From positions 32,001 to 96,000 of the forward strand of contig JAXMOL010000011.1 in assembly GCA_034669905.1 (NCBI GenBank): 64,000 bases of DNA, read 5' to 3'. Shown in pieces: positions 3,121-37,284 of the stretch. A model generated the notes under the pieces. The model did no database searches. It was not told where the DNA came from and was given only the letters and a program-made list of their open reading frames with translations. This DNA is from Candidatus Hydrogenedentota bacterium (lineage in GTDB: Bacteria > Hydrogenedentota > Hydrogenedentia > Hydrogenedentales > JAEUWI01). The number at the start of each line of letters is the position of its first letter. Position 1 is the stretch's first letter. Position numbers and translations under genes: made by a program.

Positions 3121-4913
3121 TCGATAGGCTCCATCAATGAAAATAGCTCCATCGCCTGACTAACCAAATCGTCCGTCCTCTTCTCTATCCCAGTGGTATC
3201 CCATGTACGGGCTTTTGCCAAGCGAGCGTTCAAACTTAGACCGTTCTTATACCCGACGGGGCGTTTCTTTTTATCGCACCGGTCACGCTTATCTTCGAAG
3301 CTCTTGTTGCCAAGCGAGCTGTTGAAACCAGAAATGGTCAGATTTCCCAATCGATGCACATGGCTTCTCTGGATTTCTCTTGCCGTCTCAACGTCGCCAT
3401 CAGCAATCATGTTAACCCACGGCTTGGGAATGTTCTCCCCCTGTGGCAAGACATGTTCAATGGTCCACAGAAATTGCTTTCCTTTCGTGCGCCACAGGTC
3501 CACCCAGGTTTCCTCCGTCATGCCTTGCTCTGCCAAGGCGCACAGTATGAACCGAGTGACCCCGGCGTTCTCCTCATAAATCGGACCTTCCAGCTTTTGT
3601 CTGAAAGACTCGTCGGATGCGGAAATTTCCAAGAGTCTCGTTCGAACAAGCTCGGGAACTGCCGCACCTGACGTACCATCGAGGCCTTCAACAATTGTCA
3701 TGAACACCCTCGTCATGTCCCGCGTGGGTGGCGTATCGGTGAGGTTGCGACGAACGAAAAATCGAACGAGCAAAGAAATAATCGATGTGAGGTGATCAAT
3801 ATTGAGATCGAGGGCCTTCTGTCGCACCAATAAGTGAAGCATCAGCAAGTAAGAAGGTGCGCCTTGTATTCGCTCAAGCTGCTTTAATGGATAGGCCAAG
3901 TCCTTCAGAGTATGGTCAGAGCGTCGTGCCAATATGGTCGCATAGAGCCGTCCTGCCTCGCTCACCTCCTGGAGAAAGAGCTGCGCGTCATGGTTGATGA
4001 GTCTCTCATAGACTTGGATAAGGTTGGAGCGCGTAGCGAGTGGGACCTGGAAGATCGCTTTCAAATCTTCCCTGAACGCATTGTAGTACTGGCGAAAAAA
4101 ACGCTCTTGTACGGCGTAGTCATCCCCCAAGTACGTAAGCAGGCGATTCCAGAGCTTGAAATAGTGATCAACCTTACCCGGATCCGCTTTCTCCAATTGG
4201 GCCAAGAGCTTGTTCTTAATGAGGTCGACCCCGGTGAGGGGCATTCCACGATTATTCAGGGACTCGAATAAGGTATAAGCGTCGGCATGGCTCGCCACTT
4301 CAATCTTGACCAGACACGATTGTCTAACGTTGTCGAGGAACTCTGTAATCGCATTAACGGGCTTGTCCAAGTCCTTGATCACACCCTCAAGGCGGCCCAA
4401 AAAATACCGATAGGCTCGGAATATCTTGCGATTTCCAGCATAGGGTGGTTTGTCATACGCACCGATAATCTTTATTTTCGCCAGGATAGCTCGGTAGTCG
4501 TCCTGGTTATAGTTCTGAATCTGTGGAACCAAACGAATAACGTCGTCTCCCTTCTTCAAGACCAGCATGCGCTTCAAGTTGACCAATTCGACCCGCTGCT
4601 CATCATTCAGAGTGGCGTTATGGGCTTTTAGCTTGGTGTATAGCGCGGCAAGAAGTAGTGAGAGAGTCGTCAAACGTTGCTGACCATCCACCAGTTCAAG
4701 ACTTTGGGTGGATAGCGTATCCGGCGAGTGATTGATGCAAATGATTGAGCCCAAGAAGTACCCAGGGTCATTTTCGAATACATCGTCAAACAGGTTTTCC
4801 CACTGGCTCTTGCTCCAAGTATATTCACGCTGATAGCGGGGGATGGCGTATACGACGTTCCCTTCAATATCAAGTAGCTGGGTGATCGGATAGTTATTTA
4901 CCGACTTAATCAT
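3117..4913 (-). CDS. DUF262 + DUF1524 (HNH) protein, GmrSD/BrxU/SspE-like nuclease
   Basis: DUF262 motifs IPRYQREYTW, VDGQQRLTT and FESLNNRG. DUF1524 motifs TIEHVLPQ and LGNLT...NSSLGN. Likely start is ATG 4913 (MIKSVNNY). The stop overlaps the pglZ start. Confidence 0.9.
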   Translation of the reverse strand: MIKSVNNYPITQLLDIEGNVVYAIPRYQREYTWSKSQWENLFDDVFENDPGYFLGSIICINHSPDTLSTQSLELVDGQQRLTTLSLLLAALYTKLKAHNATLNDEQRVELVNLKRMLVLKKGDDVIRLVPQIQNYNQDDYRAILAKIKIIGAYDKPPYAGNRKIFRAYRYFLGRLEGVIKDLDKPVNAITEFLDNVRQSCLVKIEVASHADAYTLFESLNNRGMPLTGVDLIKNKLLAQLEKADPGKVDHYFKLWNRLLTYLGDDYAVQERFFRQYYNAFREDLKAIFQVPLATRSNLIQVYERLINHDAQLFLQEVSEAGRLYATILARRSDHTLKDLAYPLKQLERIQGAPSYLLMLHLLVRQKALDLNIDHLTSIISLLVRFFVRRNLTDTPPTRDMTRVFMTIVEGLDGTSGAAVPELVRTRLLEISASDESFRQKLEGPIYEENAGVTRFILCALAEQGMTEETWVDLWRTKGKQFLWTIEHVLPQGENIPKPWVNMIADGDVETAREIQRSHVHRLGNLTISGFNSSLGNKSFEDKRDRCDKKKRPVGYKNGLSLNARLAKARTWDTTGIEKRTDDLVSQAMELFSLMEPIE

Positions 4914-5122
4914 TCTCCGGTTCCCTGTGCAGCTTTTTTCTCGGCCAAAGTTAGATGGTAGTCGTTGATGCGGTCGCCTTTGAACACCGGATACCAGGGG
5001 GCGGACCCCACGTCTTTGCCACGGTCTTTGTCCGGCCACAACACACACGCGGGAGCCACTTTCGGCACAGTATTGTGAATTGCTGAATCACGAATGAACA
5101 TCTTGAAGCGGTCTATCAGCAC
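4910..5122 (-). pseudogene. Chimeric remnant: pglZ 5' fragment fused to a pglX 3' tail
   Basis: The first half (…HNTVPKVAPACVLWPDKDR) matches the PglZ N-terminus (…HNAEVEVAPACVLWPDKDR). The second half (GKDVGSAPWYPVFKGDRINDYHLTLAEK) aligns with the PglX C-terminus (GKDV…RINNTHIPLSSK). Confidence 0.8.
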
Positions 5123-5305
5123 AATATCACCTTTTTATAACGAGAAGCTTGAAGTCGCTTCACAGCTTCTGCAAACAAGCTCCAAGTTCTACTCAAAAGC
5201 TAAGCCCTCTACACCGACTAGGTTTGGAGCACATCCTGGGGAGTGTATTCGAGGATACCTACCGATAAGATTCGCTTCGATCTAAGTATGTGCGGATTCA
5301 CTGAG

Positions 5306-6523
5306 CTAAAAAAGCATCATCTGGGCATCGTTCTTTTTCTCTATGTCCCGGAGGGATTCGAGATAGGCTGGACCATCTAGCTCACTATCTAGAATTTCGA
5401 AACTATTTATTTTCGTTCCCAAAAGCTTGGTCCGTTCTCTGCTTTGCTCATAAAGTGCCTCAAACAAAACTGACGGCACTATCGTTCCTGTCCTAATAAT
5501 TCGGCAGCATAGTCCAGCGCATGCCTGATTACTCAGCAGGTCATCAGTTTCATCAAGATACTCCAGTATCTGCTCCGGACAATGGTACTTTTCATGGACG
5601 ACTTTCCAAAGCTGTTTCTTTTCACGATATCCGTCGGGCGGGACTATATCTCTTGAGGATTGGTACATTCTTGTTGACGATACGCTATCTGTGTGAAATA
5701 TTGAGTCTACCGCAAACTGACCGACCGGAGCGCAAACTGCATTGCCCGCCATTCGAAGTGCGCTACCTCTCTTGATACCCTCAAATGCATTCATGTCATG
5801 GAAGCCTTGAAAGCCCAAATTTTCCTTTACCGTAAGCTTTCGAACTTTTTTGTCATAGCACACCGCAACTGGGGATATGCCTCCTTTGTGTGAGGGAGCT
5901 CCGACTTTCAAAGTAGGGACAAAATCCTCCCTTAGGCACAACGACCGGGCACTAGCGGTCCAGTAGAAACTCAACACCTTCTTTCCTTCTTCAATCCTCG
6001 AAGGTCGCTTAGGCGGCTTTATCTCGCGATGAAGCGCCAAGGCGATGTTCTTGATTCTCGATGCGACGACGAAGATTCGATTCCTGTCTTGTGGTACACC
6101 GAGTTCTAAAGCGTTTATTAATCTCCAAGAACAATACGAAAGACCAATACTTTCCAGTTCGTCTAATACCGTTTTGAAGTCTTCCCCTTTATTGATGTCA
6201 AGAAGATTGGGAACGTTTTCCAAAACGACCGTATGAGCTTTGCTCTCGTTTACGATTCGTATTATCTGAAAGAAGAGGGAGGACCTTATTCCCTTCAATC
6301 CACTTTGCATTCCCGCTTTTGAGATGTCTTGACAAGGCCATCCAGCAACTACCACATCCACTTTAGGCGGAGTAAGTGTCTCGACATCGTCGTGAAGGTC
6401 GGTGTTTTTGAACCTTCTACCCAAGACTATTCTGGCGTCCTCATCAATCTCGCAGCAAAGGACTGGAGGCGCAGACTCGGATTCGAGCCCGCCAATCCCA
6501 CTGAATAAGCTGATATATCTCAT
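5306..6523 (-). CDS. DNA (cytosine-5)-methyltransferase
   Basis: Motif I LFSGIGG, motif IV GWPCQD, motif VI LENV, motif VIII PQDRNRIF, motif X AGNAV. ATG 6523 has a GAGGTGG RBS. Confidence 0.92.
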   Translation of the reverse strand: MRYISLFSGIGGLESESAPPVLCCEIDEDARIVLGRRFKNTDLHDDVETLTPPKVDVVVAGWPCQDISKAGMQSGLKGIRSSLFFQIIRIVNESKAHTVVLENVPNLLDINKGEDFKTVLDELESIGLSYCSWRLINALELGVPQDRNRIFVVASRIKNIALALHREIKPPKRPSRIEEGKKVLSFYWTASARSLCLREDFVPTLKVGAPSHKGGISPVAVCYDKKVRKLTVKENLGFQGFHDMNAFEGIKRGSALRMAGNAVCAPVGQFAVDSIFHTDSVSSTRMYQSSRDIVPPDGYREKKQLWKVVHEKYHCPEQILEYLDETDDLLSNQACAGLCCRIIRTGTIVPSVLFEALYEQSRERTKLLGTKINSFEILDSELDGPAYLESLRDIEKKNDAQMMLF

Positions 6524-6546
6524 ATGATTCCACCTCTGCTCGGAAC

Positions 6547-9500
6547 TCAATCTTGCTTACTACTTAAGGGAATATGGGTGTTGTTAATACGGGCTCGCAT
6601 AACGGCCTTCTTCTTTCCAACCACCTTAGACACGTCCTTCCCACTATCATTTTCCCAAGAGATATTTGGTCTGATGCGAAGAACACCTGCACCCGACTTA
6701 CCCCAATGAGGGACAGTCATAAAAGGCCTTATATTGATACGCACTCCGTCTCTAAGGTCTGGATTCCAACCCCTCGGTTGTCTCGATAGTGGTTTCCATC
6801 GAACGAAGATATCGTATGGCACCTCCCCTGTCTTCACTAGTTCGAGTTTTTTCTTAAGGTCTTCCGCCGCTTCAAGCTTCACTCTAGCCCCGTCGACTCC
6901 ATCCCGAATATCTTGTTTCTGGCGAGATATCCAGTCCTCTAAGTAATTGTATATCAGCGTTTCGAGGTTCTTGTAGTCCAATTTATGGTAGTTGACTAAC
7001 GCCGAAAATCCATCTACCTGACCATCCCATATGTGCCAAATGAATGGTCGTTGTTGAAAAAGTCTACAGTGCTGGAGAAAAAACTTATCTCGCAACCAGG
7101 ACTCCAGTTCTTTTCCTGCGTGACCGGAACTCCTGAGTAGTTGCGACTCGATATCATTGGACCACAAGTTGCCATAGGCAGCATTCAGAAGATCAACTAA
7201 ACGGTCGGCAGCCGACGCTTCGCCGCGTAATGCCGGGATACAGACGATGCCGTCGTCATCAGAAAAAGTTGCAAGCTCTTTACTTCGCGCCACCCATTCT
7301 TGTTGTTCGTCCGAGATATCTATATTGGAGTAAAATTCGGCTGGCCATCGATATCCGAGGAGGCGTATGACGGCAACCTGAAGCACGGTACTATCAGTGC
7401 GCAATGGCCCATGCTTCGACCCTCCACATCTTTTGTCCCAGACCACGGAGCCGCAGGGATGTCCATGAAAGATAAACTGGCGGGGATCATCAGAAAATGG
7501 CTTGGATAAGCCATTCGGGTAATCTTTTTTTGAAACATTGGCCCAGCGCTGAAGGTCAAAAGGAACCTTGTCCAAGACACCAGTGGGCTTGATCAGTTTT
7601 TGATTTAGTCTCTTGACCGCTTCACGGTACTCTGCTGATTTGCAAAAACTGAGTATTGCTGCCAAATGACCTTCGTCCTTTGGAACCAAAGCAACACCGT
7701 TTTGGGCATGAATTTCCCCATAGGTGAGGCATGCGCTTAGGTGCGTTCTGGAAACGAATATGCCCGGCTTTCCAAAAGCTGGCTTTCCCTGTATACGTGC
7801 ACCGCTGAATCGCGAAATCTCTCCAATTCCGCTTTCCCAAAGAAAGACACTCTGTCTTCCCCAGTAATACTCCAGAGACTTTTCTGAAGCTATGAGCACA
7901 GACCATTTCTTGGCAATTTTGCTGAGCTCCCAAAAGTATCGATCGAATCTTTTTGTGTCGCCCCTCGATAAACCTTCCCATGTCTCTACATAATCAGAAA
8001 GACTGTGGGAGTCTGGCAATCTATTATCGGTGAGTACAAATCCTGGATTCTGCAAAAGAAATGACTGTACTGTGACATCAAAACCTTTGCCCTTTAGGGC
8101 TTCTGACTTGTGTCTCGAGCTACCTTGGTCAGATAGATCGATATAGCCCATCGTATTATTCAGCGAAGGTTTTCGAGGGCACATTGTTAATAGTGCGACA
8201 TCGACAACCTCGCCGCCTATCGTTTCGAAAGCTCGCTTTCCAAGGGCCGCAATGCTTAATAGAGATAGATTCTTGATACAGTACTCGCGAAGAGGACTAT
8301 AGTCCTCTGTGTATGTCATCCACGCTCGGGGGACCACTACGGAAATGGCACCTCTTTTTTCACTGAGCTCTATAAGTCTCAATAGAAACGCTACTGCAAG
8401 GTTCGATTTACCCAATTCAAAAAACGAATCTACATGTTTTCTCAGTTGAGCAACCTGCCTTCCTCTAGCCAAGAAAGGAACATTGGTTATTATCCAGCAG
8501 TAATTTTGACTCAGTATTTTGGCGACGCGAGCGAGCCCATGGGCTACGACAGCCATCTCATGGCGTTCAGGTCGAGACACCTTTTCGAGTGCAGCGAATA
8601 GCAGAGGCTCTACTTCCTGCCAGTCGGAATTGGAAGGAGCTGTTTTCTGAATGGTTGCTACAGGGCTAATCAAGCTTCCAAGTATTGGTGCGTTCTTAAA
8701 CTTCGAATACAACGCTTCCAGCGACAAACGTAGGCTTGAATGGTCTTCAGCAAGGCTTAACCATTCTTCCTTTTGGCCGCGAATCGATAGTCCTGAACAA
8801 GCGATATTCAGATTCGGCAATGGACGATAGCTACCTGCGCACGGATATTTCCAGGCTGCAAGAGCAAGGGCAAAACAAGCTAACTCTACACATCGTTTGT
8901 CGATCTCCAAACCATGAATATTCTCACGCAGCACTGCATTCACTGCCTGACGGGAAGAGAGTTCCTCCAACTCCATACGCATTGGTACTAGCATGAGAAA
9001 AGCCGCGACCAGGAAATGACCCGAGCCGCAACAGGGGTCCAGAGTCTTGAACTCACTTAGCTTCTCAGGCCAGTCATCAAACGTACCGTTGACAGTAGAC
9101 CAAGGACCCTCTTCTTTCTTTGAAAAACGAAGGTATTCCAAGGGCACGCCCGGTATGGATGCCTTTGTGCGGAGTTCCTCTTCGCTCTTTGCACCTTTCA
9201 GATCGGACTCACTCAACCGGCGAGCGGCCCACCAGGCTCCCAAAGAATTATCCAATAGAAAGGCCACCATATAGGGCTCGGTAAAAAGTTGGGTAACTGC
9301 AGACAATTCCTGCGCACCAATTTCTATTTCTTGGGCGTTGACCTCATCTTTTCGTTTGGACTGCCAAAACTGATAGACCCAGCCCAGGGAATCCGACGCA
9401 ATGAATACTTCACTCGGCAGATTGGCCACCAACCGTTCCAGCTGCTGCTGGTGTTCCGGCGGCAATACCAACTGAAACACCGGGGAATCCGGACGAAATA

Positions 9501-23043: not shown

Positions 23044-23120
23044 TGGTGGGCGATACAAGATTCGAACTTGTGACCTCTGCCGTGTGAAGGCAGCGCTCTA
23101 ACCAACTGAGCTAATCGCCC
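23044..23120 (-). tRNA. tRNA-Val (anticodon CAC)
   Basis: GGGCGATTAGCTCAGTTGGTTAGAGCGCTGCCTTCACACGGCAGAGGTCACAAGTTCGAATCTTGTATCGCCCACCA: cloverleaf, TTCGAA T-loop, encoded CCA. Confidence 0.97.
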
Positions 23121-32246: not shown

Positions 32247-32945
32247 ATGAAACAGGTTGTTCGCGTCGTCTTCACGTTGGGTGGGCTCCTCGCCCTTGCG
32301 GGGGTAGCGTATTGGTTCAGCCGACCGGCACTACCCGTCCCCGTGGGCGCTCCGACCCCCGCCCCGACGGGAGCCGGATGGATCAATCTGCTGGATGAAG
32401 CCCATCGCGGCGCCTGGCGCAATATCACGGACGATCGGGAGATCTTCGCACTGGAAGACGACCAACTCCACATCTTTGGCCACACCGTGTACCCCCTCCG
32501 CTATGTGGGCTATGAAACGGAGCGCTTCGGCGACTTTGAGCTGCATGTAGAGTTTAAGGTCGCCCCCGGTGCCAACAGCGGTATCTTTCTGCGGGCCCAG
32601 GCCAATGATCCGGTTTACCGCGGCTTTGAAGTACAGGTCCTGGATGACCACGGTAAGGCACCCAACAAGAATGGCTCGGGGGCCATCTACGATGTGGTCT
32701 CCCCCATGTACAATATGGCCCTGCCCGCCGGGGAATGGAACAGCTATGACATCACCGTGGTGGGCGGAGAAGTCATCGTTTTCATGAACGGCTGGCGTGT
32801 CGTCCATGCCAACCTCGACCAAATGACCATGCCCATCGGCAAATACAAGGCCCCCTTTGCAGAACTTCCCCGCGATGGGCTCCTGCTTTTTCAGGACCAC
32901 GGCGGGGAAGTCTGGTATCGCAATGTGTGGCTTAAGAAACCCTGA
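32247..32945 (+). CDS. DUF1080 (3-keto-disaccharide hydrolase-like) protein
   Basis: ANSGIFLR, FEVQVLD, GEWNSYDI and FQDHG..VWYRN. Confidence 0.9.
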   Translation: MKQVVRVVFTLGGLLALAGVAYWFSRPALPVPVGAPTPAPTGAGWINLLDEAHRGAWRNITDDREIFALEDDQLHIFGHTVYPLRYVGYETERFGDFELHVEFKVAPGANSGIFLRAQANDPVYRGFEVQVLDDHGKAPNKNGSGAIYDVVSPMYNMALPAGEWNSYDITVVGGEVIVFMNGWRVVHANLDQMTMPIGKYKAPFAELPRDGLLLFQDHGGEVWYRNVWLKKP

Positions 32946-33109: not shown

Positions 33110-33883
33110 TCAGCCTTCCTGCAGCTTCCGCTCGAGCAACTGATTGAGTTCCTTGCTGAGGGCCGCAATCCGGGCATCCAGCGATTCATTGTCCACGTCT
33201 TTCTTTTTTTCGCTTTCGTGCACTTCCTGGTAGTTATTGAGGACGGCCCCCACCACCAGGTTGATAAGCAGGAAGGTACCGATCATGATCCAGGACACAT
33301 GGTAGGTGGTCACCACCCAGTAGTTCCGATGGGGCAGGCCGTCGTAGCGCAGGTCGGTCCAGTCTTCGCAGGTGAGCGAGCGAAAGAGGGAAAAGAAGGC
33401 TTCGTGGAGCGTGCCATATTCGCTGGGCTGCCCTTCCCCGAAGAGTTCCACGCCCATGACGGCGTAGATATAGAAGCAGATGGTCATGAGCAAGGCGATG
33501 TAGACCATGGAAGACAGGGACTTGATGAGGACGGAGACGATCAGCCGAAGCTCATCGAGGCCATCCACCAGGCGCAGCACCCGGAATACCCGGAGCACCC
33601 GTAGCAGGGTTGCGATGGTGGAGATGTTGGGCACGAATGCCGAACCGACGACGATGATATCGAAGATGTTCCAGCCATTGCTGAAAAAGGTCTTCAGGTT
33701 TTCGCGGGCGTAGAACTTGAGCGCCAACTCGACGACGAAGACCCAGATACAGACCCACTCCAGCAAACGGATAACGGGCGATTCCACGTAGGTCGACAAT
33801 CCAATCAGGAAGGCATTGAATATGATTACGCCGAGAATGATACGACCGAAAAGGGTGCTGTTAATAAACTTCTTGGGATGCAT
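33110..33883 (-). CDS. Voltage-gated cation channel, BacNav family (6TM)
   Basis: WNIFDIIVV (S3), LRVLRVFRVLRL (S4 with 4 Arg), pore filter TCEDWTD, S6 LINLVVGAVL and a C-terminal coiled coil. Start MHPKKF with a CAGGAG RBS. Confidence 0.93.
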   Translation of the reverse strand: MHPKKFINSTLFGRIILGVIIFNAFLIGLSTYVESPVIRLLEWVCIWVFVVELALKFYARENLKTFFSNGWNIFDIIVVGSAFVPNISTIATLLRVLRVFRVLRLVDGLDELRLIVSVLIKSLSSMVYIALLMTICFYIYAVMGVELFGEGQPSEYGTLHEAFFSLFRSLTCEDWTDLRYDGLPHRNYWVVTTYHVSWIMIGTFLLINLVVGAVLNNYQEVHESEKKKDVDNESLDARIAALSKELNQLLERKLQEG

Positions 33884-33952
33884 GGGGGCAACTACTCCTG
33901 ATTGCTGGAATCCGAAGGCGGGCATTCGCCGACATCCAGCGCGCTGTGGGCA

Positions 33953-36109
33953 TTAAAACACCGAGGTATAGGTAATGTATCCAAAAATGGCGAATGCCAG
34001 CGGGACGAGGGTCACCGCCGACACAAAGTCAAGTTTCAGGGCCATGGCGTCACGTTTCCGAATAACGAGCCAGTTGGCCACAATACTCTCCAGAATAAGC
34101 GTAAAGGTCAGAATATAGGCGCTCATGAAGTACTTGTCTGCGGACACCAGGTAGCCCACGTTGGGCCAGGCCTCCTCCTGGGAAAGGTGGAACACGAGGA
34201 TACTCAGGAGTGCGGTCATCACGAGGGATACCCGGGCGTCGAACTGGCTATTGGGAATCAGGAACATCAGCAGGCTGACCGAAACCATGATGAAGAAGGG
34301 CAGAAACAAGGTTACCAGATAGGGGAAAAGAATCCGCTTGATGATAATGTTGGTCTGGTAGATGGAGAACTCCACGTCACTGTCGCCACCGGTGTAGTTG
34401 GGGTCACCGAAGGTGGAGCTGAGCGCATGGGTTCCGGAATAGTCTTCCCGCCCGACATAGTCCCACTCTTCGGGATAGATCTCGTGGAGGTAGGCGTGGC
34501 TCAAATTCTTGGCGTCGAGCACCAGCATGATCTGGCTGGCATCTTTGCTCTTGTGTGATACCGTGATCGGCAGGTGCTGGGTATCAAAGGGAAATAACCG
34601 AACGTCATAGGGCGTCAGGTAGGTACCTTTAATCTTGTAACAGATGTACTTGATGTCACCGCTTCGGTCTTCCCGAAGCACTTCGGTTTTGTCCTCGATG
34701 CCATATATTCCGTTGAGGAAATCGATGTTTTCCACATCAATATCCCCTTCCCAGCGGAACCACATGAAGAATTCCACGTCGAAATTCTGTCCGGCCACAT
34801 CCACGCTATTGATACGGTAAAAATCGAGGCCGGCATAAACCACACGGGTCAGGTAATAAGGTATCTTGTCGCTCACCACGACTTCGTTTTCGGCAATGCG
34901 GGATTGAAGGTTGTTGAGGACATGGGGCTCGGTAACGCGGCGCAGCTGGGTAAAGGCCGGTTTGAACTGTCCATCGTCGATATAACTCACCACAATGGGC
35001 CGCCGCATCGCCCCGTGCTCGTCAAAGTAGAGTTTCCCCGTAATGCCCGTGAAAGCGTTTGCCGGTCCGTCGTAGGCCAGCAGCCCATTGCGGAGCGCGG
35101 TGCGGTCGGCTCCACTGGCCTCAATGGCCGCGGCGATCATGCGCCCGGCATCGTAGCAGAAGGCCCCCCATACCGTGGGAGCCACCTGGTATTTCTCAAA
35201 GTATTTCGCTTCATACTCCTGGGCGAACTGCTTGGTCATGAGCGAAGAAAGCTCATAGAGGAATGGACTGGACACATAGACCCCGGCCGTATCTTCGCCC
35301 AGGCTGGTGATAAAGTCCTGTTTCGCAAAGGAATCGGGCCCCATGACGGGCATGGTCACGTCGGCCTCACGCAACTGACGGACGAGTTTTCCACCGTCGG
35401 CGGTATGGGAGAAGAGCACCGCGGCATCGGCCGTGCCCCCCTGCGCGGCATCGAGCTGGGTGGCAACGAAGTCGGCTCCGAACTTGTTCTCTTCGCTATA
35501 GGGGATGGTCTGGACAATTTCCATACCCAAGCGACGGGCCTTGCGGCTGAAGCTTTCCAGCAGGCCCGTGCCATAGGCATCGTCAGAATGAATGACCAGG
35601 ACCCGTTTGGTCTTGAGCACGACCTGCAGATAGACCGCGAGGTTCTCCCCTTGAAGATCGTCCTCATAGTTCATACTGAAGGACCATTCGCTGCTCCGGG
35701 TCACCTTGGGATTACTGGCCGAAGGCGAAATGTGGGGCAATTGGTACTGGGCGTAGACTTCACTGGCGGCCAGGGCCACGCCGGAAAACTGGTGCCCGAT
35801 GACTGCGAGTATATTCGGATCTTTGCCGAATTGTCCGGCGATATTCCGCGCCATGTCGGCGTTATTTTGATCGTCCTTAAACACGATTTGGAGGGGACGT
35901 CCCGCGATACCGCCATTCTGGTTGGTGACTTCGACCAGCAATTCGAGGGCGCCACGCATGGCCCGACCCTCACTGGCGTTGCCGCCGGAAAGGGGCAGGG
36001 AGGCACCGAGCAAGACGGGTTCATTGGCCGCAGCAGCCAGTGTGAAGACAATCAGAAGTGCCAGTTGAAACATCGTGCGGCAGATTGGGTGCATCATAGG
36101 GTGGAGCAC
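33953..36109 (-). CDS. Pentameric ligand-gated ion channel (Pro-loop, ELIC/GLIC-like) fused to an N-terminal LivK-type periplasmic binding domain
   Basis: Signal peptide, then a type I PBP domain (LGASLPLSG, FKDDQ, VIGHQFS, ISPSAS, DAYGTG, YDA, GITGKLYFDEHG). Then an ECD with FDVEFFMWFRW and Pro-loop YDVRLFPFDTQ, and four TM helices (M1 PYLVTLFLP, M2 DARVSLVMTALLS, M2-M3 WPNVGYLV). Confidence 0.9.
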   Translation of the reverse strand: MLHPMMHPICRTMFQLALLIVFTLAAAANEPVLLGASLPLSGGNASEGRAMRGALELLVEVTNQNGGIAGRPLQIVFKDDQNNADMARNIAGQFGKDPNILAVIGHQFSGVALAASEVYAQYQLPHISPSASNPKVTRSSEWSFSMNYEDDLQGENLAVYLQVVLKTKRVLVIHSDDAYGTGLLESFSRKARRLGMEIVQTIPYSEENKFGADFVATQLDAAQGGTADAAVLFSHTADGGKLVRQLREADVTMPVMGPDSFAKQDFITSLGEDTAGVYVSSPFLYELSSLMTKQFAQEYEAKYFEKYQVAPTVWGAFCYDAGRMIAAAIEASGADRTALRNGLLAYDGPANAFTGITGKLYFDEHGAMRRPIVVSYIDDGQFKPAFTQLRRVTEPHVLNNLQSRIAENEVVVSDKIPYYLTRVVYAGLDFYRINSVDVAGQNFDVEFFMWFRWEGDIDVENIDFLNGIYGIEDKTEVLREDRSGDIKYICYKIKGTYLTPYDVRLFPFDTQHLPITVSHKSKDASQIMLVLDAKNLSHAYLHEIYPEEWDYVGREDYSGTHALSSTFGDPNYTGGDSDVEFSIYQTNIIIKRILFPYLVTLFLPFFIMVSVSLLMFLIPNSQFDARVSLVMTALLSILVFHLSQEEAWPNVGYLVSADKYFMSAYILTFTLILESIVANWLVIRKRDAMALKLDFVSAVTLVPLAFAIFGYITYTSVF

Positions 36110-36366
36110 GGCAAATTCCCTCGTTGGTCAACTACGCTGAGGCCCGGATAGTCGTTGGTACCGTGTACTGCGCATGGCACCAATCGCTCGCACGCCAGCG
36201 ATTTTTGGGCCGTCTTCCCGACGTCGATGCGGTAGTGTAGCAAATGGCTTGTGAGTACCGGAAACGTTCCGCGTTGCCAATCTCCGGTGACGGTCGTATA
36301 ATGGAGCCCACGTGAGATTTCGACCATCCCTGGTCGCCTGTTCATACAACTACCCAGCGAGTTTTT

Positions 36367-37284
36367 ATGGCATCACCAGATACGATCGACCTGAATTACA
36401 CGGAGCCCCCAGGCTTTCTACCCATCTATCGGCGGCTCCTCTTCGGGAGACGGGCCAGGTATGTGGCCAACAGTGCTTTACCCCACTTTCGGGCCACCTG
36501 GTCAGGCGCGAAGGCCGATGCGGCCAAGGTGGAAGCCTATTGTGCCGCCTGTTCGCTGGAATACGATGGGCACTACCCCATTTTGTATCCCCACATCCTC
36601 ACGTCGGCCATCCATCTCGACATGATGAGCAAGCCGGCCTTTCCCCTCTCCCCCATGGGCGCGGTGCATGCGCGGAATCACATCCTCCAGCATGCCCCCA
36701 TCCCGGTGGATGGGGCCCTGGAAGTGACCTGTGAGCTGACAGCCACCCGGGTCTTGAAGCAGGGCGTGGAATTTGAAGTGACCACCGTGCTGGAAACAGG
36801 AGGCACCCGTTGCTGGGAAAGCATCAGTGCCTACCTCGTGCGCGGAAAGAAATATGGCGAAGCCGGTGAAGCCTCGGAGCGTGCCGAGTTGCCCGAGGTG
36901 GGCGATAGTGCAAAAACCGATAGCTGGCCGGTGCCCAAAGACATGGGTTGGCGCTACGCGAAGATAACGGGGGATTTTAACCCCATTCACGTATCCCGGC
37001 TGCTGGCCCGCTTGATGGGCTTTCAGCGGGACCTGATTCATGGCATGTGGTCGGCCGCCCGTTGTGTGGGCCATGCGCCCGCCGTCGCACCCGCCTACCC
37101 GGTGCAATTGGATCTGGTCTTTAAGGGCCCCGTATATATGGAGAGCACGGCCACGATGAAGGCCACCGGCCAGGATGATGGCACGCTCTTTGAACTTTAC
37201 TGTGATGACAATCCCCGCCCGTGTATTCGCGGGCAGATAAAGCCCATTGCTGCAACGACCCGACTGGTCGCTGACAGCGCGTAA
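36367..37284 (+). CDS. MaoC-like double hot-dog dehydratase
   Basis: YAKITGDFNPIH...IHGMWSAAR. Confidence 0.9.
   Translation: MASPDTIDLNYTEPPGFLPIYRRLLFGRRARYVANSALPHFRATWSGAKADAAKVEAYCAACSLEYDGHYPILYPHILTSAIHLDMMSKPAFPLSPMGAVHARNHILQHAPIPVDGALEVTCELTATRVLKQGVEFEVTTVLETGGTRCWESISAYLVRGKKYGEAGEASERAELPEVGDSAKTDSWPVPKDMGWRYAKITGDFNPIHVSRLLARLMGFQRDLIHGMWSAARCVGHAPAVAPAYPVQLDLVFKGPVYMESTATMKATGQDDGTLFELYCDDNPRPCIRGQIKPIAATTRLVADSA

Follow-up and report, generated by a model that had tools for sequence, protein, structure and literature searches.

We propose, at a probability of roughly 0.58, that two neighbouring ion channel genes of a Candidatus Hydrogenedentota bacterium, a member of a genus of uncultured bacteria, form a lineage-specific operon that arose by gene insertion and in which coupling of the channels via voltage is optional. 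Both genes lie in the window, the whole stretch of 64,000 nucleotides that was analysed. Gene 1 (33953..36109, minus strand; 718 aa, GTG start, P0001) encodes a PBP-I-fused, Cys-less ion channel of the pentameric ligand-gated kind (pLGIC), and gene 2 (33110..33883, minus strand; 257 aa, ATG start, P0002) a one-domain voltage-gated cation channel (Nav) with a NavPp-type filter. The initial annotation described two co-oriented genes 69 bp apart between oppositely oriented flanks, and this arrangement stands: both reading frames are on the minus strand, separated by a spacer (33884..33952) with AGGAG at 33895-33899. The convergent DUF1080 (3-keto-disaccharide hydrolase) gene downstream of Nav (32247..32945) and the divergent MaoC-domain gene upstream (36367..37284), our two syntenic markers, are both on the plus strand. 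The MaoC gene has a sigma70-like promoter (36274..36302, plus strand; 11/12 consensus matches), whose TATAAT is kept in all nine genomes of the genus. Since GC3 of the channel genes (0.71-0.78) is at the level of their neighbours (0.70-0.83), composition gives no sign of a recent foreign arrival. Judged from sequence, genes 1 and 2 probably do form an operon, though one of local occurrence.

Identity of the two channels

By homology and predicted fold, gene 1 codes for a Cys-less pLGIC to which a LivJ-type binding domain is fused; this combination was already reported in 2004. Its earlier identification as such a fusion is borne out by profile matches to Peripla_BP_6 (PF13458, residues 33-380, E 1.9e-52) and Neur_chan_memb (PF02932, residues 603-686, E 7e-8, above the cut-off), by the similarity of its channel part to GLIC and to structure entry 6fl9, which we take to be sTeLIC (E about 4e-10), and by its AlphaFold2 model; an HMM search gave no Neur_chan_LBD match in gene 1 at E<=0.001. 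The model (pLDDT 87.7) starts with an N-terminal helix (residues 3-27), followed by the fold of a binding protein, then by a beta-sandwich and, at 594-717, by four helices. All on the minus strand, the corresponding features are a putative signal peptide (about residues 1-28; 36026..36109), read from the sequence and model rather than from a predictor as a hydrophobic helix ending in AAAA; a LivJ/Atu2422-type Venus-flytrap domain (33-380; 34970..36013); the extracellular beta-sandwich (about 414-593; 34331..34870) with the Pro-loop FPFD (P507, D509) and the pre-M1 R592; and transmembrane helices M1-M4 (33959..34330), placed by model and alignment. The Pro-loop motif YDVRLFPFD begins at residue 501, and no Cys pair that could close a disulfide loop flanks YDVRLFPFDTQ. 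The single-reading-frame fusion of PBP-I domain and channel recurs in two other genomes of the genus (G007 and G005).

Among 82 homologues, the FPxD residues P507 and D509 and the pre-M1 R592 are invariant, and M1 P604 (80/82), R or K at 0' (80/82) and L9' (76/82) nearly so. Pre-M1 Arg, M1 Pro, basic 0' and Leu 9' are features of the pLGIC superfamily (PMC4795631; PMC549065). The M2 of gene 1 reads D(-2')A(-1')R(0'), S2', T6', L9', V13', E20', with Asp replacing Pro at -2'. The DAR sequence is unlike that of GLIC, sTeLIC or DeCLIC; an acidic -2' is also present in GLIC. With Ala at -1', A(-1')R(0') corresponds to the metazoan anion signature (A[R/K]) and not to the cation motif GE[K/R], although, in prokaryotes, this site is no guide to selectivity (PMC4795631).

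Four residues of the binding domain, S109, S132, Y179 and D259, align with S79, T102, Y150 and D226 of Atu2422 and are the modal residues among the 82 homologues. We take them to correspond to positions of the mGlu1 motif. In mGlu1, a Ser/Thr/Tyr/Asp motif holding the alpha-amino-acid group has been described (PMC2680970). According to Foldseek, the predicted gene 1 domain has the same fold as Atu2422 and LivJ (TM 0.83-0.92 by target length), and Atu2422 has GABA, Ala, Val and Pro as ligands; unlike these binding proteins, the gene 1 domain is fused to a channel and has no ABC transporter beside it. Trp314 occupies the position of Atu2422 Tyr275, and this may favour small ligands. We found no solved structure with a PBP-pLGIC fusion, the best Foldseek matches being stand-alone binding proteins. 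Because the amino-acid-binding residues are kept, gene 1 is a good candidate for determining both the ligand and the structure of a PBP-fused pLGIC.

Gene 2 was initially taken for a voltage-gated channel with a four-arginine S4 and a TxExW filter, and it does match Ion_trans (E 4e-45), has R95, R98, R101 and R104 in S4 (33572..33601, minus strand) and has the filter TCEDWTD (residues 171-177; 33353..33373, minus strand). This filter is, however, of the NavPp type (TLEDWTD) and not that of a canonical BacNav, the kind named in the initial annotation. Canonical BacNavs (NaChBac, NavAb, NavMs) belong to the same fold family (gene 2 versus 6vwx, BH1501, E 5e-40) and share the four S4 arginines, but position 4 of the filter is Asp in gene 2 and Ser in NavAb, so that canonical BacNav selectivity is not transferable. 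NavPp of Plesiocystis pacifica is likewise a one-domain 6TM channel and differs in the filter by lacking the Cys at position 2; the gene 2 filter, equal to NavPp at 6/7 positions, fits the ancestor-like BacNav pattern TLE(D/G)WxD of the NavPp/CavMr group. NavPp itself is Na+-preferring, with PCa/PNa of 0.308, and Ca2+-blocked, and two other channels with NavPp-like filters gave no current (Shimomura et al. 2020, PMC7041947). By analogy, gene 2 is probably Na+-preferring and partly Ca2+-permeable. In a quick tree in which long branches meet and which contains no reference sequences, the gene 2 clade stands apart from TLEGW channels and from the channel of locus L034 (see below).

The architecture of gene 1 is that of the ART-LGIC described by Tasneem et al. 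(2004, PMC549065), with N-terminal PBP-I, ligand-binding domain and 4TM. In the portion of that paper available to us, PBP-I-fused prokaryotic pLGICs are predicted to be chemoreceptors, and one pLGIC is noted to share its operon with a Na+/H+ transporter, an analogy being drawn to NaVBP; the same portion does not name a voltage-gated channel as a pLGIC operon partner, unlike the situation here. The Cys-less Pro-loop core is common to gene 1 and GLIC, sTeLIC and DeCLIC. GLIC and sTeLIC are pH-gated and lack a PBP domain, and DeCLIC has an N-terminal domain of another kind. The suggestion that a linked pLGIC-Nav locus had not been described agrees with our finding no paper on one, though neighbourhood tables in papers' supplements could bear on this point.

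Distribution and origin of the pair

Within the genus, the Nav gene is resident at this site, between the DUF1080 and MaoC genes. The pair occurs in three of the nine genomes (G000, G004, G007), Nav alone in five and the pLGIC alone in one (G005). Four Nav-only genomes (G001, G002, G006 and the single-contig G008) have an empty site, namely DUF1080, Nav and MaoC with no pLGIC, and in the fifth (G003) Nav lies beside DUF1080, again with no pLGIC. In G005 an intact pLGIC is followed by an ISAzo13 transposase end, and the only Ion_trans match has a TVGYG filter; this assembly comprises 660 contigs, and its Nav may be unassembled. Across the phylum, Nav matches are found in 26/135 genomes and pLGIC matches in 4/135. 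These four form one RpoB clade (SH-aLRT 99).

A conserved promoter-like element of the extended -10 type, TGnTACACT (36233..36243, minus strand), precedes gene 1 and stands directly upstream of Nav in the Nav-only relatives. As the 11-bp TTGMTASACTA, it precedes the Nav start by 62-63 nt in the four genomes with an empty site and also stands upstream of Nav in G003, before the pLGIC in the three pair genomes and, as a one-base variant, in G005; it occurs nine times in 7.44 Mb. The element is defined as a sequence motif and not by a mapped start site. Its position, before Nav in 5/5 Nav-only relatives but before the pLGIC in the pair genomes, makes it most likely that insertion of the pLGIC separated Nav from its promoter. 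By parsimony, a mobile, usually solitary PBP-fused pLGIC gene would have entered once, in the ancestor of the four-genome clade, and one promoter would now probably drive the pLGIC and then Nav.

Could the pair instead be ancestral in the genus, with the pLGIC deleted in other lineages? The RpoB tree leaves the root of the genus open, so that an ancestral pair followed by loss keeps some probability; one gain and one loss would suffice were G003 the sister of the empty-site clade, and the site has been rearranged also in G003 and G005. This history takes more events than a single gain, tblastn found no pLGIC remnant at the empty sites, and the other 126 genomes of the phylum have no pLGIC match. 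We regard it as very improbable.

Somewhat less improbable, though still not to be expected, is that the two genes adjoin by accident and are transcribed separately, with the promoter taken over by the pLGIC and Nav relying on a new weak promoter or on separate control. A weak sigma70-like site (9/12) inside the end of gene 1 (34140-34112, minus strand) could serve Nav, in a scan that found 6 such sites versus 2.2 expected in shuffles, and between G000 and G004 little of the spacer is conserved except the ribosome site. Nonetheless, the spacer is only 69 bp long, the ancestral promoter-like element of Nav now stands before gene 1 with no copy in the spacer, and Nav is still under strong selection and therefore expressed. 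A terminator scan of the spacer found none, as the initial annotation had stated, and spacer folding is no better than that of shuffles (z=+1.0). The operon claim thus holds in part: a shared transcript is probable, with the motif before gene 1 and none in the spacer, but the pairing is local and the operon not a conserved one. Because the pLGIC gene sits between the Nav gene and its likely promoter, the two channels are probably made together.

Outside the genus, one of 27 related pLGIC loci (L034) adjoins a Nav, as do none of 99 more distant loci, many with short flanks. The L034 pLGIC is of the same clade, and its Nav is 33% identical and lies head to head (divergent) 224 bp away; with a rough chance of 0.001-0.04, this adjacency is more than pure accident would lead one to expect, and the divergent pair leaves a functional link between the channels an open possibility. 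At E<=1e-30, the PBP-pLGIC proteins fall into 76 clusters. Elsewhere, related pLGICs have neighbours that bear no relation to one another, 8/10 distant genomes with this pLGIC type lack a Nav match, and a survey of the 49 genomes in the family to which the genome with the closest Nav belongs gave no further pair. In another genome, G544, the two genes lie on separate contigs, both of them close to the contig's end. Five further candidate pairs (P0004/P0048, P0006/P0053, P0007/P0068, P0005/P0054 and P0312/P0049), whose members are linked only by an equal length of the longest contig, were left out of the counts. We therefore reject a broadly conserved pair, with 3/9 genomes in the genus, 1/27 related loci and 0/99 more distant ones: as far as sequences tell, the pairing is local rather than widespread.

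Coupling of the channels and its meaning

The idea of a conserved 'excitability' system finds no support in this survey, the pair being confined to part of one genus whose sister genomes carry either gene alone, and the adjacency expected in other genomes is largely missing. In the mode of action that we consider likely, the Venus-flytrap domain would close on a small amino acid and thereby open or modulate the pentamer, and the resulting current would depolarise the membrane. The cell encodes NqrA, and its Nav would follow only after a sufficiently large fall in potential. Such neuron-like coupling is physically plausible; as the purpose of the pair we consider it unlikely. Because each channel persists without the other, voltage-borne coupling would be optional.

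The stronger form of this idea, a selected electrical module in which a ligand opens a depolarising pLGIC, Nav adds regenerative Na+/Ca2+ entry, and selection has put pLGIC genes 5' of resident NavPp-type genes more than once, is as a whole a tentative reading of low probability. In its favour are two juxtapositions that arose independently in a single pLGIC clade, each 5' of a Nav with a TxEDWTD filter, and strong purifying selection on both the gene 1 channel domain and Nav (dN/dS 0.01-0.05). The pair has outlasted synonymous saturation (dS about 2.7, G000 versus G004), which counts against the insertion reading that we favour. The -2' position is acidic in 49/82 homologues and V13' is kept in 71/82, and NqrA and flagellins are present in all five genus genomes searched. 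The four empty-site genomes have a filter that has drifted to TCDAWAE, and their Nav dN/dS is higher (0.20 for G008 versus 0.04-0.05 in pair genomes). However, TCEDWTD is kept in G003, which has no pLGIC. The closest kin of the L034 pLGIC, L035 and L044, have no Nav in the flanks covered (about 7.9 kb on the upstream side, 5-8 kb on the downstream side), and the amino-acid residues are lost from the L034 binding site, as read from the near-identical homologue P0018. Nor do the two channel types show co-occurrence in 401 genomes of another phylum (pLGIC in 65, Nav in 55, both in 5 versus 8.9 expected, none adjacent; Fisher p=0.17, kin not being independent). Moreover, one open pLGIC, at an assumed 8-50 pS, would by itself need 1-8 ms to discharge a cell of 63 fF, so a spike amplifier would hardly be needed. 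The bacterial resting potential is about -120 to -150 mV. Half-activation of NavPp T232A, at -17 mV (PMC7041947), is far from this range.

Anion selectivity of the pLGIC had been named as evidence against coupling. We set this argument aside: the resting potential of a bacterium should lie far below E(Cl), so that an anion channel would also depolarise the cell, perhaps not to the Nav threshold.

To our knowledge, few biological roles are established for bacterial Navs. For pLGICs of unicellular organisms, no biological role is known (PMC4795631). If bacteria had more than once put an amino-acid-sensing pentameric channel and a NavPp-type channel under shared control as a two-step ligand-to-voltage circuit, which we doubt, the locus would amount to a gene-encoded counterpart, in prokaryotes, of synaptic excitation (a receptor potential, then regenerative Na+/Ca2+ entry), and two channel families of largely obscure role in bacteria would gain one. 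As for the lineage-specific operon that we favour, the pairing is rare and optional and its host is known from assembled metagenomes. A natural locus with both genes probably under one promoter would be a test system for the coupling of ligand- and voltage-gated channels in a bacterium, and the comparison of genomes shows how inserting a gene behind a promoter already in place can create an operon, the empty-site relatives serving as controls.

Two channel genes and their products

Gene 1 (33953-36109, 718 aa), coding for a PBP-I-fused Cys-less pLGIC, and gene 2 (33110-33883, 257 aa), coding for a NavPp-type voltage-gated channel (the Nav), both lie on the minus strand with 69 bp between them; the genes on either side, DUF1080 and MaoC, are on the plus strand. 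This is the layout described by the initial annotation, as is the lack of an intervening terminator: a sequence scan and a folding check of the spacer found none. The host genome has a single pLGIC match and two Ion_trans genes, the second with a TVGYG potassium filter. Elsewhere in the window, 3000-23120 is a low-GC region (0.46-0.56 versus about 0.60) that carries GmrSD, C5-methylase and Eco57I/MmeI-type genes and ends with tRNA-Val (23044-23120); it is probably an integrated defence island.

The reading of gene 1 as a flytrap domain joined to a pLGIC is borne out by Pfam profiles (Peripla_BP_6, E 1.9e-52; Neur_chan_memb, E 7e-8) and by the predicted structure (pLDDT 87.7), in which a beta-sandwich and four helices follow the binding-protein domain. 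Such fusions were already described, and predicted to be chemoreceptors, by Tasneem et al. (PMC549065), who also note a case in which one operon holds both a pLGIC and a Na+/H+ transporter. The clade of gene 1 consists of PBP-fused pLGICs scattered over Myxococcota, Planctomycetota, Elusimicrobiota and others, and P507, D509 and R592 are invariant in all 82 homologues longer than 600 aa, the set used for all residue counts. Since the binding domain retains S109, S132, Y179 and D259 at positions equivalent to S79, T102, Y150 and D226 of Atu2422, which binds GABA, Ala, Pro and Val (PMC3656012; amino-acid-binding motif from PMC2680970), the ligand of gene 1 is likely an amino acid. Its M2 helix aligns gap-free with those of glycine and GABA-A receptors and reads D(-2')A(-1')R(0'), the last two residues corresponding to the A[R/K] signature of animal anion channels. 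An acid replaces the -2' proline in 49 of the 82 homologues, and 71 have Val at 13'. In prokaryotes this pore site is reported to be no predictor of selectivity (PMC4795631), and we lean somewhat toward a cation-selective pore. Myxococcota PBP-pLGICs of four loci (L012, L013, L014 and L016; P0023, P0027, P0030, P0034-P0037) have degenerate binding sites, and at the C-terminus their chains continue past M4 into an additional domain of some 250 aa that has no Pfam match.

The 4-Arg S4 sensor assigned to gene 2 is also present, within an Ion_trans domain (E 4e-45). Its filter, TCEDWTD, equals the TLEDWTD of NavPp at six of seven positions, a likeness based on the filter, with the NavPp sequence lying outside our channel tree. 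NavPp prefers Na+ but lets some Ca2+ through (PCa/PNa 0.308); Ca2+ also blocks it, and half-activation of the T232A mutant occurs at -17 mV (PMC7041947). Many homologues of gene 2 (35 of 121 proteins counted, including P0104, P0106, P0115, P0117, P0131, P0135 and P0149) have TGDDWxx filters, which lack Glu at position 3. NqrA and flagellins occur in all five genus genomes searched, including the host, which has six flagellin-family matches. A search of the whole host genome found neither a CheW match nor a full-length CheA orthologue; CheW is present in all four relatives, and the missing genes may reflect loss or an assembly gap.

Distribution within and outside the genus

In the phylum, gene 2 has matches in 26 of 135 genomes and the pLGIC channel domain in four. 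The pair is present in the host (G000), G004 and G007; in the latter two a contig break splits one gene of each pair, the pLGIC-Nav junction itself lying within one contig. At the same site in G001, G002, G006 and G008 (the last on a single contig) the Nav directly adjoins MaoC and the pLGIC is absent. In G003 the neighbours of the Nav are DUF1080 and a gene for a B-family DNA polymerase. The pLGIC of G005 is intact and is followed, at the contig end, by the terminal part of an ISAzo13 transposase; DUF1080 in this genome has a different neighbour, and no Nav was found in the assembly (94% complete, 660 contigs). RpoB trees that do not fix the root of the genus group the four pLGIC genomes in one clade and the empty-site genomes in a second, and a single gain of the pLGIC is the simplest history. 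The empty-site Nav orthologues evolve faster (dN/dS 0.20) and have the unusual filter TCDAWAE (L085, L086, L087 and L088 in G002, G001, G006 and G008; P0072, P0073, P0076 and P0078), possibly with altered selectivity; two other orthologues have TCDAWID and TCDAWSD.

Conservation of the adjacency in other genomes, which the initial proposal called for, largely did not hold up: it is seen in three of nine genus genomes, at one of the 27 loci outside the genus that belong to this pLGIC clade (flanks totalling 233 kb, with 1 kb or more on one side in 25 of them) and, in the sequence available, nowhere among 99 pLGIC loci that are more distant, many of which are short or have only 1.5 kb of flank. 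The single case outside the genus is on L034, a metagenome contig of high GC, where a Nav with a TLEDWTD filter and a PBP-pLGIC stand head to head (3597-6970, 224 bp between). With gene 2 this Nav shares 33% identity, and it has its own homologues (53-78% identical) in about 45 genomes sampled from another phylum, that of G135; therefore, the pairing arose separately. The rough chance of direct adjacency here is 0.001-0.008, and that of any Nav in the flanks 0.005-0.04. L034 carries limited weight, being a single unverified contig with a degenerate binding site, and the nearest kin of its pLGIC (L035 and L044) have no Nav. Eight of ten distant genomes with this pLGIC type have no Nav match and two have one outside the flanks seen; of three further genomes, one has a Nav, on a different contig. 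Among 401 genomes of the G135 phylum, 65 have a pLGIC, 55 a Nav and five both (8.9 expected); in these five, the two genes either lie on separate contigs or are separated by 2.2 Mb. No neighbour recurring across lineages emerged when 112 flanking ORFs, drawn from 22 of the 27 loci, were scanned with Pfam. Apart from the distant echo in L034, the pair is thus confined to a subset of the genus. Two other arrangements deserve mention. The gene directly after a PBP-pLGIC in L033 (3724-8768) encodes a 953-aa protein that combines a PBP domain, a stretch similar to the extracellular portion of pLGICs and an MscS beta-domain. L046 (3919-10934) has three genes in tandem: one encodes a double binding protein (PBP-I/SBP_bac_5) and the other two encode PBP-pLGIC-like proteins, candidates for a heteropentamer.

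A probable operon and its possible function

Alignment of the regions upstream of MaoC revealed a conserved minus-strand element of the extended -10 type. The motif TTGMTASACTA matched 21 of 203 loci, all in eight genomes of the host genus, and has nine copies in the 7.44-Mb genome; as it was derived from the same alignment, its rarity speaks for homology of the element and not for promoter activity. It precedes the Nav in five Nav-only genomes and the pLGIC in G000, G004 and G007, as well as, with a one-base change, in G005, and is absent from the 69-bp spacer. Two intact, conserved channel genes stand behind a shared promoter-like element. Because the pLGIC lies between the Nav and its likely promoter, a single transcript for both is probable on sequence grounds. 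In the pair genomes both channel genes are under strong purifying selection, with dN/dS of 0.01-0.05 for the channel domain of gene 1, 0.04-0.10 for its binding domain and 0.04-0.05 for the Nav, compared with 0.07-0.15 for MaoC and DUF1080, several of the underlying dS values being near saturation.

The initial annotation interpreted the locus as an excitability operon with neuron-like logic. This reading is partly supported: the probable operon and the two known channel types stand, and a conserved excitability system does not, the pair being limited to some genomes of one genus. In the proposed sequence of events, an amino acid would bind the flytrap domain, the pentamer would open and the membrane would depolarise; the Nav would open only after the potential had fallen by roughly 100 mV from a bacterial resting value. 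One open pLGIC is computed to pass 1-8 pA with a time constant of 1-8 ms (assuming 8-50 pS and a 63-fF cell), so that it could depolarise the cell unaided. The Nav would then contribute Na+/Ca2+ entry or duration, and no spike from it would be required. The two channels could plausibly be coupled electrically in any cell that expresses both, with no need for linkage, and we consider it unlikely, at a probability of roughly 0.2, that the locus is a neuron-like module with such coupling as its selected purpose. A full-text literature search, covering mostly listings and abstract openings, returned no account of a pLGIC gene linked to a BacNav gene. The pair is probably a real operon, in which both channel types were already known and their arrangement is new.
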